Source: a virus (lineage: Duplodnaviria; Heunggongvirae; Uroviricota; Caudoviricetes). From it: 64,000 nt of DNA. The translations under genes and the position numbers were made by a program. The notes under the pieces were generated by a model. It had not been told where the DNA came from. It saw nothing but the letters and a program-made list of their open reading frames with translations, and did no database searches. Where the stretch lies: the IMG/VR virus record IMGVR_UViG_2526164690_000025; one strand, given 5' to 3'. Below, one piece after another: positions 50,051 through 56,665 of the stretch (position 1 is the first letter of the stretch; each line of letters begins with the position of its first letter).

Positions 50051-50296
50051 TTGGCAGAACGTGTTGATGATGCAGAGCTGAGCATGAATCAATTAGAAGC
50101 TCTCAAAGACATGGCCATCGATAACATCAGAAAGCAGGCACAGGTCGTGAGCCAGGTATTTACAGGGAAGTGTCGTTACTGCAATGAACCGATCGAATCA
50201 GGCATCTATTGTGACGCTGAGTGTGCGCAATGGCACAGGGAAGAGCAGGCCGCAAAACAGCGTAAATATGGCATGCGACCGGCAGGATTTGACTGA
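50051..50296 (+). CDS. DksA/TraR-type C4 zinc-finger protein
   Basis: 81 aa; CRYCNEPI...CDAEC motif. Confidence 0.5.
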   Translation: MAERVDDAELSMNQLEALKDMAIDNIRKQAQVVSQVFTGKCRYCNEPIESGIYCDAECAQWHREEQAAKQRKYGMRPAGFD

Positions 50297-50298
50297 TT

Positions 50299-50877
50299 AT
50301 GTTGCGCTTTACTGAGGAAGAGTTTCAGGCTTTTAGTGAGCGTCGAAATAAGGGGCGGTCCAGGCCAAAAACCAAAAAGGATCCATTCTTATCGCTTGCG
50401 CCGGTAAAAGAAGTTTCTCCACATGCGAAGGCACTTGCAGCACTGGCAAAGAACCCCGACCTGCGCGACGGAAATTGCGAGCACTTCGAGCAGGTTTTCA
50501 TTTTTGATTACTTCGAACGCAAGCACCCTGACATCTATGAGCTGTTGCATGCAACGCCTAACGGAGGGAAACGTTCAAAAGCAACCGCCGGGAAAATGAA
50601 GGCTGAAGGGCAGAAAAAAGGTTATCCGGACATGAGTCTCGATAAAGCATGCGGTATTTATCACGGCATGCGAATTGAGCTTAAAGAACCAAATGGTAAA
50701 GCCCCGACGAAAGAGCAGATCGCCTGGATGCGCAGGCTTAGAGAGGAAGGTTACTACGTCGTTCTTGCGTATGGTGCAGAACAAGCGATAACCGCCATCC
50801 TGGAATACATGAGCCTTAAAAAGGGTGAGGCTATTGAGCATGTATTGAACGGTGACAAGTGGTTGTTCGCTACGTGA
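50299..50877 (+). CDS. VRR-NUC domain nuclease
   Basis: KKGYPDMSL...GMRIELKEP...QIAWMRRLREEGYYVVLAYG pattern. Confidence 0.55.
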   Translation: MLRFTEEEFQAFSERRNKGRSRPKTKKDPFLSLAPVKEVSPHAKALAALAKNPDLRDGNCEHFEQVFIFDYFERKHPDIYELLHATPNGGKRSKATAGKMKAEGQKKGYPDMSLDKACGIYHGMRIELKEPNGKAPTKEQIAWMRRLREEGYYVVLAYGAEQAITAILEYMSLKKGEAIEHVLNGDKWLFAT

Positions 50878-50901
50878 AATAATAAATTAATTAGTGCATA
50901 T

Positions 50902-51099
50902 GTGTTCTTTGATACAGCGCACATTAACATCGGGAGAATAATCGTGTCATCCAAGGCTAATTATGAATCGCTGGCATCGATCATGCCGCGTAATGAACAG
51001 GAAGCAGATGCTGTAGTGGACCCGGTAATCGCTGAAATGAATGCTCGCCTGGAGGCTGAATTTGCAGCTGAGAATGAACATACCACCCAGGGCGACTAG
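50902..51099 (+). CDS. hypothetical small protein
   Basis: 65-aa ORF. Confidence 0.3.
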   Translation: MFFDTAHINIGRIIVSSKANYESLASIMPRNEQEADAVVDPVIAEMNARLEAEFAAENEHTTQGD

Positions 51100-51703
51100 G
51101 ACTGTTTTTTGTGTCGGTAGCGGTCCGTCACTCACTCGTGAGGACTGTGCTGCTATAGAAAAAACTGGCTGTTCAATCATCGCGGTTAACAATTCCTGGC
51201 AGATGTTCGATGACATTTATGCCTTATACGCCGGTGATTTGTCATGGTGGAAGCAATACGGATCCACCATACCGGGAGGGAGATTCCGCAAAGTGACAGC
51301 CAACCTGGCGGCGGCGAAATCATTTTCGTTGGAGTACAGGCGATATTGTGGACCGGCGGAAGGGGTAAATAGCGGCGCGCAGGCTATCAGTCTGGCTGCT
51401 GAATCAGGGGCTGAAGTAGTGGTATTAGTCGGCTATGACTGTTCTCTGCAAAACGGCCTTCATTGGCATGGCGCGCACCCTCAAGCACTACGGAATCCAA
51501 CGCAGGTGTCTATTTCAAAATGGCAACAGCAGTTCCTGGATACCCGCAAAAAACACGCAGATTTACATATTTTGAATGCAAGTAGGAGCAGTGCAATTCA
51601 ATGTTTCCCAAGAATAAATTTAGAGGCAGTGATCGCGTTATTATCGTCGGCAGTGGCCCAAGCGCCGCAAACTTTGTTGCGCCGCGCGGAGTGCCGATTA
51701 TAG
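51041..51703 (+). CDS. GT42/MAF-like putative glycosyltransferase (paralog 1; true start probably internal)
   Basis: VGSGPSL...IIAVN...NSGAQAISLAAESGAEVVVLVGYD resembles sialyltransferase-like GxGPS / SG...GID signature. Confidence 0.35.
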   Translation: MLAWRLNLQLRMNIPPRATRTVFCVGSGPSLTREDCAAIEKTGCSIIAVNNSWQMFDDIYALYAGDLSWWKQYGSTIPGGRFRKVTANLAAAKSFSLEYRRYCGPAEGVNSGAQAISLAAESGAEVVVLVGYDCSLQNGLHWHGAHPQALRNPTQVSISKWQQQFLDTRKKHADLHILNASRSSAIQCFPRINLEAVIALLSSAVAQAPQTLLRRAECRL

Positions 51704-52227
51704 CGGTCAATGGGGCCATCGACTGGCTTAACCGCGCTTCTTATTTTTTCACCCTTGATCCATCCCCAGACAATATGCGGCGCGTTGGTCGTGGCCGCCG
51801 TCGCCGTGGTGTTTGTTATTGCATGGCACTGCCCGATGTTAAAGAACGTGAAGTCAGAGATGGCGTTCTGTGCTTCCGTCGTGTGGCTGAACGCGGCATG
51901 GAGCCAAAAAATACGAATTCTCCCGAGTGGTGGGCGTGGCGCTGGTCCGCACATTTCGGCCTTTGCGAAGATGAGAATGAAATTGCCAGCGGCAATAGTG
52001 CATATGGTGCTCTGAACCTGGCTTTCCATATCGGATTCAAACATGTAGCTCTGGTGGGCGTTGACGCTACGCAAGAACTACGCGTTCACTCCGGCGGCAC
52101 GCCAAAAAATCTAAGTCACCTGCCTTTGTTATTCCAGTCTGCGCGTGAACAGATTGACGTTGTTTCATGCGGGAAAATGGGAGGTATTCCGCAGATGACT
52201 CTTAAAGAATGGCTGAAGAATACATGA
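51601..52227 (+). CDS. GT42/MAF-like putative glycosyltransferase (paralog 2)
   Basis: IIVGSGPSA...IIAVNGA...[26 protein letters not shown]. Confidence 0.35.
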
Positions 52228-55163: not shown

Positions 55164-55235
55164 CAGTTACAGTGTCACTTTTAATGCTGGTGGAGTGCGC
55201 CCACCAGCATTTTTTTCGTCCAATGAGGAGGGCAT

Positions 55236-55742
55236 TTGAGTATTTTCAATAAACACGCACACCAGGAACGTCCGTATATCGTCATAGTTGATATTGATGG
55301 AACAATATCAGAGGCAACTGAAGACAGACTGCATTTGCTTCCGCCACCAGGTAAAGGTGCATTAACAAAGGACTGGAACGAGTTTAATCTCGCCTGTGAC
55401 ACCGATACTCCCATCACTCCAGTTATTGATATGGTGCGCCAGTTATTTAACGTTTACACGGTCTGGTTTGTAACCGGGCGCTGTGAGATCGCAAGGGATA
55501 AAACACGAGCCTGGCTGCGGAAGTACGTAACAAACGGGGCTGAGCCTTTGCTATCTATGCGTCCTGCCACCGATGACAGAAATGACGGCCCAGCAAAGAT
55601 TGATCTCCTTAAGAAAATTGGTCTAAGTAAAATCGCGTTCGCGCTGGAAGATAAGATTGACGTGGCGCGTGTTTTCAGGAGGCACGGCGTGCTTACGTTA
55701 ATGGTCAGGGAGTATGAAAATGCGCTTCTTCATCAACAATGA
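55236..55742 (+). CDS. HAD-superfamily phosphatase-like protein
   Basis: IVIVDIDGT motif I (DxDGT). Confidence 0.5.
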   Translation: MSIFNKHAHQERPYIVIVDIDGTISEATEDRLHLLPPPGKGALTKDWNEFNLACDTDTPITPVIDMVRQLFNVYTVWFVTGRCEIARDKTRAWLRKYVTNGAEPLLSMRPATDDRNDGPAKIDLLKKIGLSKIAFALEDKIDVARVFRRHGVLTLMVREYENALLHQQ

Positions 55743-55758
55743 TTGCTCTAATAAATAT
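55742..55758 (+). promoter_or_regulatory. C1-operator-like site overlapping stop codon
   Basis: ATTGCTCTAATAAATAT, 16/17. Confidence 0.55.
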
Positions 55759-55840
55759 TGATTTTTAAAATGGAGAAAGTGAAAATAAAAACATGCCGCA
55801 AGGCGCGGCATGTATCCAATCAATCACAGGAGCTGAAAAT

Positions 55841-55927
55841 ATGAACACGGCATTCAAAATCATTATGGCCGCGATCTATTTCTGGCTGTTCTCTATCACT
55901 TTTGGCGGCATCGTCGCACATGGGTAA
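55841..55927 (+). CDS. possible 28-aa hydrophobic peptide
   Basis: ATG with SD caggag; MNTAFKIIMAAIYFWLFSITFGGIVAHG; preceded by stem-loop 55792-55812. Confidence 0.35.
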   Translation: MNTAFKIIMAAIYFWLFSITFGGIVAHG

Positions 55928-55936
55928 GGGGGATGC

Positions 55937-56665
55937 ATGAAAGGCGAAGTGAAAGAGCGCGGCATGATTTTCAACGATGAGATGGTCCGGGCCATCCTCG
56001 AAGGAAGGAAAACGCAGACGCGGCGGATAATGAAAAATCAGCCTGCGGAAGTTGGTCCAGAAGCACCAGTGATGGTTAGAAAAATTGGTGCAGGTTTTCA
56101 GTGGTACGGGGCTGATGGTGTAAGCAGTGTTTTCAATTGCCCATTTGGTATCGTCGGCGATCGAATTTGGGTTCGTGAAACATGGGCGATATTAGGCAAT
56201 GAGGATGGTTGCAGTGTGGACTGGAACGACAACCTTTGTCGTGGCGATGAGAAGAACGCAGCAAGGATTTATCGGGCCAGTTGCGAGCAAAAACCTGGTG
56301 ATTACGGCTTATGGTCGATACCCGATGATGCCGACTGGAAACCTCACACTGTGAATGAAAAGTTTGATGGTGGGTGGCGTCCATCAATTCACATGCCGCG
56401 ATGGGCATCACGCATTCTGTTGGAAATTACCAACGTGCGCGTTGAACGGTTGAACGATATCAGCGAATGCGATGCAAGGGCTGAGGGCGTTCCGCCTGCT
56501 GGAAGTTTGCTTCCTGATCACCCGGGAACATTCCTTACTCCCAAGGGGGATTTCGCAATGGCCAAGGTTGCGTTCCAGCGCCTGTGGGAATCCATCTATG
56601 GTGAAGAAAGCTGGAACGCTAATCCCTGGGTGTGGGTAATCGAGTTTAAGCGCATTCAGGAATAA
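55937..56665 (+). CDS. ASCH-like (PUA-fold) domain protein
   Basis: N-terminal MVRAILEGRKTQTRR and GDRIWVRETW; C-terminal NPWVWVIEFKR. Confidence 0.5.
   Translation: MKGEVKERGMIFNDEMVRAILEGRKTQTRRIMKNQPAEVGPEAPVMVRKIGAGFQWYGADGVSSVFNCPFGIVGDRIWVRETWAILGNEDGCSVDWNDNLCRGDEKNAARIYRASCEQKPGDYGLWSIPDDADWKPHTVNEKFDGGWRPSIHMPRWASRILLEITNVRVERLNDISECDARAEGVPPAGSLLPDHPGTFLTPKGDFAMAKVAFQRLWESIYGEESWNANPWVWVIEFKRIQE

Follow-up and report, generated by a model that had tools for sequence, protein, structure and literature searches.

A candidate glycan-building cassette, pmgO-pmgP-pmgQ, within the accessory pmgL-pmgT block of a P1-like phage-plasmid

Do glycosyltransferase-like, phosphatase, nuclease and ASCH-like genes that lie side by side in a phage genome form one system for modifying nucleic acids or a surface? 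The question is raised by positions 50051–56665 of a 64,000-nucleotide stretch of the IMG/VR virus record IMGVR_UViG_2526164690_000025 (Caudoviricetes; the whole stretch is called the window below), for which an earlier note made from the sequence alone had proposed such a cluster. All of the open reading frames (ORFs) listed in that note were found in place. Positions 50051–56631 are 98.6% identical at the nucleotide level to the P1 genes pmgL-pmgM-pmgN-pmgO-pmgP-ppp-pmgQ-pmgR-pmgS-pap-pmgT and colinear with the pmgL-pmgT gene order of the curated P1 record NC_005856. When 50051–56665 was compared with phage genomes by megablast, 24 records were returned; in 19 of the 24 the match extends over 80% or more of the query, and every one of the 19 is P1, P7 or a P1-like phage-plasmid at ~98–99% identity. 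By sequence, the whole window is a P1-like phage-plasmid, and the pmgL-pmgT block is a mosaic in which most of the accessory genes, long catalogued in P1, are dispensable.

We lean towards a reading in which pmgL-pmgT is an accessory mosaic of P1 and pmgO-pmgP-pmgQ is a dispensable cassette that decorates the virion with a glycan. These three genes would be the one coherent unit of the block, a soluble, cytoplasmic glycan-building cassette, and Ppp, Pap, PmgM, PmgL, PmgS and PmgT would be independent accessory genes that are neighbours by chance.

Recurrence and genomic setting of pmgO-pmgP-pmgQ

The coherence of the three genes is suggested by their co-occurrence elsewhere. Scanning IMG/VR with the full PmgO alignment recovered near-identical P1-like contigs only, and the scan was repeated with a P1-free alignment. 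Across the 67 loci with a PmgO relative (61 from IMG/VR and 6 metagenomic), PmgP and PmgQ were the only block proteins to co-occur with it; Ppp, Pap, PmgM, PmgL, PmgS and PmgT were each found with a PmgO relative in 0 of the 67. The proposal that the block is one functional cluster is contradicted by these counts. Because ppp and the other genes are missing from all other cassette loci, ppp has, by this comparison, been inserted into the cassette of P1, and the remaining block genes are unrelated neighbours.

The three genes are adjacent in an SU10-like phage (with pmgO and pmgP fused), a Citrobacter rodentium prophage, a 247-kb jumbo phage and locus L152, and in two further IMG/VR loci they share one neighbourhood but stand apart. 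In the SU10-like phage, the O::P fusion comes just after the lysis genes and is followed by the PmgQ homologue and one more GT-A-like protein. The C. rodentium prophage carries all three genes between its lysis and terminase genes. In the jumbo phage, reading from O to Q, a homing-endonuclease gene separates O from P and a GT-A-like gene separates P from Q. The gene between O and P (7552–8166 of the jumbo-phage contig) is GIY-YIG homing-endonuclease-like and is encoded on the other strand. In P1, the cassette and the baseplate/tail operon run in opposite directions from a common late-promoter region, and pmgR (53681–53899), a head-completion gene in the P1 annotation, stands directly after pmgO-pmgP-ppp-pmgQ; a pmgR knockout phenotype and its complementation have been reported (PMC9024508).

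The wider neighbourhood was surveyed in 45 non-redundant groups of PmgO relatives by scanning three ORFs on each side against Pfam. Upstream we found head-tail connector (17 ORFs), head-completion (11), portal (9) and collagen-repeat proteins (7) as well as lysis proteins, and downstream at least 20 methyltransferases, ten HK97 gp10-like, six GT9-like, three GT2 and three MptE-like proteins, together with tail-completion and tail-tube proteins and a polysaccharide pyruvyl transferase. Typically, the genes run from portal through connector and head completion to the PmgO-like protein, which is followed by a ~290-amino-acid (aa) protein, a methyltransferase, a gp10-like protein, tail completion and tail tube. 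The Pseudomonas phages D3 and PAJU2 follow this layout, with the PmgO homologue among head and adaptor genes. Carriers of PmgO/PmgP-type proteins include P1, D3, PAJU2, Klebsiella and Caulobacter jumbo phages and many uncultured siphoviruses; all cultured carriers of PmgO relatives infect Gram-negative hosts. As far as our searches extended, the cassette and its typical genomic position have not been described before. Our literature search found no papers on MptE-like/DUF115 proteins in phages, and an apparent mention of DUF115 in a BREX paper proved to be DUF1156.

Several observations were made along the way in these loci. In D3 (NC_002484; region 5691–6409), the PmgO-like match at 5855–6388 crosses the annotated orf6.5/orf7 boundary, where the gene model may be split or its start misplaced. 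The PmgO homologue of PAJU2 (AP009624.1; 7780–8349) is ORF010, deposited under the label 'structural protein'. In the first 14 kb two other ORFs share that label, one encoding the capsid and the other, ORF015, likely encoding the major tail protein to judge from its position. If the label rests on identification of the protein in virions, the ORF010 enzyme may travel with the particle. In 7 of the 45 loci (e.g., L005, 3170–4132), the portal gene is closely followed by a gene for a protein with up to 28 G-X-Y collagen repeats, which precedes the PmgO-like cluster by two or three genes; one or two loci also hold a 2OG-Fe(II) oxygenase. This recalls collagen hydroxylation and glycosylation in giant viruses. 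Runs of at least six G-X-Y repeats were absent from D3, PAJU2 and locus L009. A collagen-like acceptor in P1 was considered and rejected, as no frame of the window holds a run of five or more such repeats.

In P1 itself, plaque formation does not depend on these genes. Of 29 single-gene knockouts, 24 had no plaque defect and unchanged anti-restriction activity, and the five essential genes exclude pmgO, pmgP, pmgQ, pmgS, pmgT, ppp and pap (PMC9024508). Likewise, pmgL, pmgM, pmgO, pmgP, pmgQ, pmgS, pmgT, ppp, pap and dbn were non-essential in a screen by CRISPR interference (PMC10695390).

Predicted folds, pairing and donors of the three enzymes

Two tandem genes of the block had been read as sialyltransferase/Maf-like paralogues from a GxGPS signature. 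They are pmgO (51041–51703; its real start is probably M12 at 51074), predicted to be a transferase of the MptE/Maf/GT42 fold, and pmgP (51601–52227), both on the plus strand, as are the other genes of the block, dbn and the accessory cassette with its ASCH-like ORF (both described below). The small ORF pmgN (50944–51099, a position transferred from P1) lies inside ORF 50902–51099 and overlaps the annotated start of pmgO. Since PmgO and PmgP belong to separate PHROG families with reciprocal cross-hits, we consider them paralogues; their relatives, their conservation and the fusion of the two in protein P0051 agree.

The sole Pfam match of either protein is PF01973 (MptE-like), at 23.4 bits for PmgO and 20.9 bits for PmgP, both under the cut-off of 34.6 bits. 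This cut-off is passed by one PmgP relative (P0252, 44.1 bits), and the family has precomputed matches on many PmgO relatives. The profile of PmgO relatives matched the Campylobacter sialyltransferases Cst-II and Cst-I weakly and repeatedly (E 0.12–0.5) at the two motif regions singled out in the earlier note, and the four CMP-sugar (cytidine monophosphate) motifs of Cst-II (GNGPS, N31, TSG and GxD) are conserved and aligned in PmgO and PmgP; the spacing of the histidines (H141/H143/H146 in PmgO, H173 in PmgP) differs from that of His188 in Cst-II. Both proteins were found to share the fold of MptE-like, Maf and GT42 proteins, and like Maf and the GT42 enzymes Cst-I and Cst-II they are predicted to be soluble and cytoplasmic. 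In a viral structure library, all structural relatives were uncharacterised.

Conservation extends well beyond these motifs. Among 51 relatives of PmgO, mostly of 160–210 aa, the invariant residues are G28-P29-S30, D35, N50, D66-x-x-WW, S111-G112, G131-x-D133-C134-S135, H141, H143, H146, W161, N179 and R182. Among 247 representative relatives of PmgP, several of them fused to methyltransferase domains, the conserved positions are GSGPS, N37, D53, G131-N-S133, G153-x-D155 and H173. Because these motifs are conserved, PmgO and PmgP both look catalytically competent. They differ from Maf in being minimal (~190–210 aa, without the flanking domains of Maf) and in forming an overlapping or fused paralogue pair, and from Maf and GT42 enzymes in their sub-gathering Pfam scores and in the invariant C-x6-H-x-H-x2-H of PmgO. 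This cluster, missing from PmgP, comes right after the G-x-D motif (residues 134–146; window 51440–51478) where the model core has its lowest confidence (predicted local distance difference test score, pLDDT, ~75); it may be a metal site or hold the catalytic histidine.

The two proteins probably work as a pair, because their genes overlap out of frame and are fused in another phage. The overlap spans 103 nucleotides (51601–51703), with pmgP in the –1 frame and both frames conserved. The C. rodentium prophage has the same out-of-frame overlap (8510–8603; 94 nucleotides) at 41–57% protein identity, and in the SU10-like phage (10001–11131) PmgO and PmgP are one polypeptide of 376 aa (P0051). A programmed –1 frameshift joining PmgO to PmgP was considered and rejected; the canonical slippery heptamer A_AAT_TTA (51614–51620), which lies in the pmgO frame within the overlap, is missing from the C. 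rodentium prophage although the overlap is kept there, and pmgP comes with an AGGAG and an ATG of its own.

It could be argued that PmgO and PmgP are not glycosyltransferases but diphosphokinases (as are MptE and thiamine pyrophosphokinase) or non-catalytic, possibly virion-associated, proteins, given that MptE-like is their only Pfam match and that the PAJU2 homologue was deposited under the label 'structural protein'. We consider this improbable in view of their consistent company, which includes GT8, GT9-like, GT2 and other GT-A proteins, a pyruvyl transferase and methyltransferases, and of their invariant nucleotide-binding motifs and histidines. As for an association with the virion, the P1 virion proteome paper names neither PmgO nor PmgP, be it in its text or in its tables.

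The third gene, pmgQ (52898–53599; 233 aa), had been taken for a DxD-motif GT-A-like protein, and here the assignment became more precise. The PmgQ family profile matched Skp1 alpha-galactosyltransferase (6mw5) at E 1.8e-6 (30.9 bits), followed by GlyE and glycogenin. The PmgQ model (pLDDT 94.5) gave 50 top Foldseek matches in the PDB that are nearly all GT8 (E 1e-8 to 1e-6), among them 6mw5, glycogenin, GlyE, LgtC, LARGE1 and XXYLT1. In 27 aligned sequences D79-L-D81 and H208-G209-x-P211-x-P213 are invariant, as is G148-D149, and across 41 relatives, mostly on phage-sized contigs, the same holds for WW-x-K, D-L-D-T, GD, S-x-K and HG-x-P-x-P. The DxD and C-terminal HG-x-P motifs align to those of glycogenin and of the lipopolysaccharide (LPS) enzyme WaaJ. 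WaaJ matched the PmgQ profile at 19.7 bits, below Skp1 galactosyltransferase, and WaaO matched as well. Compared with solved GT8 members, PmgQ is compact and only 11–17% identical; no Pfam family, Glyco_transf_8 included, matched it at E <=0.1, so its link to GT8 runs through the family profile and the fold. On this modelled structure PmgQ is a GT8-like, DxD-dependent GT-A glycosyltransferase, probably a metal-dependent retaining hexosyltransferase. The glycosyltransferase assignments of all three proteins, made earlier at the level of motifs, therefore survive profile and structure tests.

With regard to donors, enzymes that take CMP-activated ulosonic acids use the MptE/Maf/GT42 fold. The PmgO family (phrog_4603) is named 'alpha-2,3-sialyltransferase', as is PmgO in RefSeq. 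To our knowledge, E. coli K-12 makes no CMP-sialic acid, and the name is therefore unlikely to be literally correct. More generally, K-12 is not known to make sialic, pseudaminic or legionaminic acid, and PmgO and PmgP would therefore have to use another donor than Maf and GT42 enzymes do. The only CMP-sugar of K-12 known to us, and the only one common to the carrier hosts, is the CMP form of 3-deoxy-D-manno-oct-2-ulosonic acid (Kdo). Because no genes for sugar-nucleotide synthesis accompany the cassette, the donors would be supplied by the host, and we infer CMP-Kdo for PmgO and PmgP and UDP-glucose or UDP-galactose (uridine diphosphate) for PmgQ.

A likeness to WaaZ, the Kdo III transferase of K-12 (CAZy GT73), was also seen. 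Among seven K-12 waa glycosyltransferases, the PmgO profile picked out WaaZ alone (13.3 bits; the others were under 2), the N-terminal motif of PmgP matched WaaZ by BLASTP (E 1e-4 over 36 residues), and the fused P0051 has a faint match to Pfam WaaZ_KDO_III (PF27901). In common are the N-terminal (V/I)II-x-SGP(S/T)...IIAVNG and a central helix-GxD region, and the donor of WaaZ is the one CMP-sugar that every Gram-negative host supplies. Nonetheless, the similarity is marginal (hhalign probability 7.5%), WaaZ is a chromosomal LPS-core enzyme, and Kdo transfer by PmgO/PmgP relatives is, unlike that by WaaZ, a prediction.

Timing of expression and the acceptor

When the block is expressed bears on what it could modify. 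The Lpa-dependent late promoter LPpmgL (49944–49962, plus strand) has no mismatch to the site annotated in NC_005856, and in the P1 annotation its –22 box is common to the divergent LP26 of the baseplate/tail operon. Five C1 operators at four positions split the block and flank every unit. The first (P1 Op82/O26; 49977–49993, minus strand) is at the P1-equivalent position with two mismatches to the C1 operator consensus ATTGCTCTAATAAATTT; the second (Op83/Oppp; 50884–50900, minus strand), ahead of pmgN-pmgO-pmgP-ppp-pmgQ, has one mismatch to the P1 site. The pair Op86a (53601–53617, plus strand) and Op86b (53650–53666, minus strand), placed by the P1 annotation and a scan of the window, spans a region (53601–53666) that contains the predicted promoter PpmgR (53602–53630; no mismatches to P1), and Op88/OpmgT (55742–55758, plus strand) has one mismatch to the consensus. 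In the P1 annotation, the operators stand before predicted sigma-70 promoters in the block. Further matches to the C1 consensus (0–3 mismatches) occur in the window at 15808, 17473, 33559, 37858, 37869, 43497 and 43513.

From the annotated LPpmgL and C1 sites, the block genes should be silent in a lysogen and on in lytic growth, after derepression and late, with LPpmgL and the C1-repressed promoters driving expression. The intact late promoter and the operators are at odds with the label 'early operon' in the earlier note. They also speak against its suggested check, LPS profiling of lysogens, in which a C1-bracketed block should be silent; moreover, the proteins have no membrane segments (maximum 19-residue hydropathy <=1.40 in any block protein).

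Under the reading we favour, the acceptor would be a structural protein that the phage makes in the same period. A virion protein as the acceptor is a serious possibility, if still short of probable. It is favoured because the family sits in the morphogenesis module, because its partners are glycan-tailoring enzymes, sometimes beside collagen-like proteins, and because, for both folds, the closest enzymes of known structure (Maf, Skp1 galactosyltransferase, glycogenin and GlyE) are cytoplasmic and have proteins as their acceptors. Virion proteins have a close analogy in the substrate of Maf, a protein that is later assembled into an extracellular filament. Phage-encoded glycosyltransferases of the Che8-type mycobacteriophages have been described as decorating capsid and tail tube (PMC11256854, PMC12619734). 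The comparison has its limits: the Che8-type phages infect another host clade and probably use other enzyme families, their glycosylation genes lie near the genome end where PmgO relatives are often inside the head-tail joining module, and a glycan on the particles of P1 or other PmgO-carrying phages is a prediction. The Che8-type glycosylation genes are reportedly dispensable for laboratory growth (Freeman et al. 2023), as the P1 genes are for plaque formation.

Alternatively, the cassette may modify the host envelope. PmgO and PmgP would add Kdo in the manner of WaaZ, and PmgQ a hexose in the manner of WaaO or WaaJ, to the LPS core at the cytoplasmic face of the inner membrane, so that the P1 receptor (core glucose) would be altered or truncated during lytic growth, with less superinfection or less loss of progeny on debris. 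The choice of WaaZ by the PmgO profile, the WaaZ-like motif at the PmgP N-terminus, the faint WaaZ_KDO_III match of the fused protein and the matches of WaaJ and WaaO to the PmgQ profile would all be consistent with this, as would the GT9 (heptosyltransferase-like) partners of six PmgO relatives. Incorporation of a third Kdo by WaaZ also goes with truncation of the outer core (PMC6358824). Every cultured carrier infects a Gram-negative host, and the triad has passed between phages whose virions are unrelated. With C1 operators and a late promoter, however, expression should be confined to lytic growth, and LPS already in the outer membrane could presumably not be changed from the cytoplasm within one latent period. 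The block proteins include no GtrA/GtrB-like partners and, as stated above, lack membrane segments, PmgQ is nearer to a protein-directed GT8 enzyme (30.9 bits) than to WaaJ (19.7 bits), and PmgO relatives typically lie between head-completion and tail-completion genes. The gtrABC systems likewise use phage-encoded sugar transfer to change phage or host recognition, but they need membrane proteins and expression in the lysogen, which C1 should repress in P1. We consider envelope modification rather unlikely on this evidence. Some surface may still be the target, but the genomic settings favour that of the virion over that of the host.

A virion acceptor also has to be interpreted with caution. 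The activity, donor and acceptor of the PmgO/PmgP family are all predicted, a glycoprotein has never been reported for P1, and text searches of papers on P1 virion proteomics and capsid cryo-electron microscopy found no mention of glycosylation or glycans. A host acceptor fits more easily with the movement of the intact triad between phages with unrelated structural proteins. GT8 and the WaaZ family include LPS-core enzymes, WaaJ among the matches of the PmgQ profile, and the Gram-negative hosts of all cultured carriers suit an LPS acceptor as well as a CMP-Kdo donor. Finally, a position among structural genes can result from the insertion of unrelated extra genes. The most specific version of virion decoration seems doubtful to us, namely that PmgO and PmgP represent a family of uncharacterised glycosyltransferases, spread widely among Gram-negative phages, whose heteromeric pair would use host CMP-Kdo to decorate virion proteins, alongside partners that vary (GT8, GT9-like, GT2 and methyltransferases), and that a glycan on the P1 particle has gone unnoticed.

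Remaining genes, nucleic-acid modification and significance

The block opens with pmgL (50051–50296), which encodes a small DksA/TraR-like zinc-finger protein (phrog_54, 'DksA-like zinc-finger protein', E 1.7e-13), and pmgM (50299–50877), called a VRR-NUC nuclease in the earlier note. The call is backed by the PGAP name and by a Holliday junction resolvase family (phrog_5702, E 6e-27), and the Pfam VRR_NUC match (E 3e-4) stays under its cut-off (21.2 versus 23.8 bits). The calls for the two phosphatases were borne out. Ppp (52209–52901), whose gene overlaps pmgP and pmgQ at its ends, is a lambda-type metallophosphatase (Pfam Metallophos, E 9e-16) with the motifs GDLHG, GDLIDRG and GNHE in its translation; it matches the NinI-like phrog_246 (E 1e-112) and does not reach the PphA equivalog PRK11439 of NCBIfam (271 versus 326 bits). 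Pap (55236–55742) is a HAD phosphatase of the PNKP type (Pfam HAD_PNKP, E 7e-12, 46 bits against a cut-off of 27.6; phrog_415, E 1e-56) with D-I-D-G-T at residues 19–23, and it consists of the phosphatase domain alone, without a kinase domain. pmgS (53901–55163) encodes a coiled-coil protein of 420 aa (phrog_1660, E 1e-195) with weak SMC/coiled-coil matches. A role of the block in defence or anti-defence was rejected, as PADLOC returned nothing of substance for its proteins beyond weak coiled-coil LmuB matches for PmgS.

The last gene, pmgT (55937–56665), had been called ASCH-like, and this could not be substantiated beyond the level of a motif. Its family has more than 8,000 relatives, a few of which NCBI names ASCH, and PmgT shares an N-terminal GRKTxTRR with YqfB, an ASCH protein (21 aligned columns, hhalign E 0.0047). 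The alignments to YqfB and to a second ASCH-like ORF cover only the first 21–28 residues, the match to ASC-1 is marginal (E 0.89), Pfam gave no match, and searches of PDB sequences with the single sequence, the family profile and an insert-trimmed core were all empty. By its N-terminal motif, PmgT is possibly an ASCH-like barrel with insertions. The form in the window has 242 aa and agrees with the end of the family consensus (...NPWVWVIEFKR). Because a junction of the accessory cassette described below sits inside pmgT, the 309-aa PmgT annotated in P1 is, judging from the aligned sequences, a deletion fusion whose last 77 residues come from the DNA of another gene read out of frame.

This accessory cassette of 6,572 bp (56632–63203; blastn junctions 56631/63204) is missing from reference P1 and 99.6% identical to E. 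coli plasmid pE2855-2. It falls in 'variable region 8' of P1; the variable regions of P1 have been described previously (PMC9603915). At least two of the genes in the cassette are Ead/Ea22-like, a third ORF being without a Pfam match, and there are also DUF551, DUF4752 and ASCH ORFs; its ORFs at 57144–57881, 58165–58899, 59197–59682 and 61127–61696 are of small-ORF types typical of lambdoid early regions. The ASCH-like ORF (61944–62225), which the earlier note had also listed, is identical in protein to WP_000002126.1, an 'ASCH domain-containing protein' in PGAP, and its Pfam ASCH match (E 0.049) is below the cut-off (14.8 versus 21.2 bits). Similarly, dbn (42476–43450), outside the block and downstream of the ban helicase gene, had been called GT4-like (GT-B fold). 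The P1 annotation agrees ('possible glycosyltransferase'), and Glycos_transf_1 (E 1.5e-5) covers the C-terminal half only, just below its cut-off (25.1 versus 26.4 bits).

These genes had suggested that the glycosyltransferases, phosphatases, nuclease and ASCH proteins jointly modify, or read modified, phage DNA or RNA, e.g., through a glycosylated base. The ASCH-like ORF, the resemblance of Pap to the 3'-phosphatase domain of polynucleotide kinase-phosphatase and the ability of phage glycosyltransferases to hypermodify DNA, as cited in PMC12619734, count in favour of this. On the other side, no base-hydroxymethylating or base-exchanging enzyme family was found among the block proteins in Pfam, PHROG or NCBIfam, the supposed partners never occur with pmgO, pmgP and pmgQ elsewhere, and the ASCH ORF lies in the 6.6-kb cassette wholly missing from reference P1. 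Ordinary restriction enzymes cut P1 DNA, which is not known to carry any modification but methylation. The folds found are MptE/Maf and GT8, and we know of no DNA glucosyltransferase that uses them; T4-type DNA glucosyltransferases are GT-B proteins that need hydroxymethylated bases. The T4 alpha- and beta-glucosyltransferases resemble the present case as phage-encoded sugar transfer that changes phage or host recognition, but neither their GT-B fold nor a hydroxymethylating enzyme was seen in the P1 block. Furthermore, knockouts of the dispensable pmg genes keep their anti-restriction activity (PMC9024508), and PmgT is unproven as an ASCH protein. The nucleic-acid reading is thus close to refuted, and we give it very little weight.

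At the stated level, the enzyme calls (glycosyltransferase, 'sialyltransferase', metallophosphoesterase and VRR-NUC) are already in the public annotation of P1. What the comparison adds is a testable idea, that pmgO-pmgP-pmgQ is a portable cassette of three enzymes whose core family lies among the head-tail assembly genes of many Gram-negative phages. If LPS is the acceptor, the cassette would be a lytic-cycle receptor-editing system. If instead the virion is glycosylated, as we favour, model coliphages and Pseudomonas phages would join the mycobacteriophages as phages with glycosylated virions, which would bear on the immune recognition of therapeutic phages and offer a biochemical handle on a minimal Maf-like transferase family.

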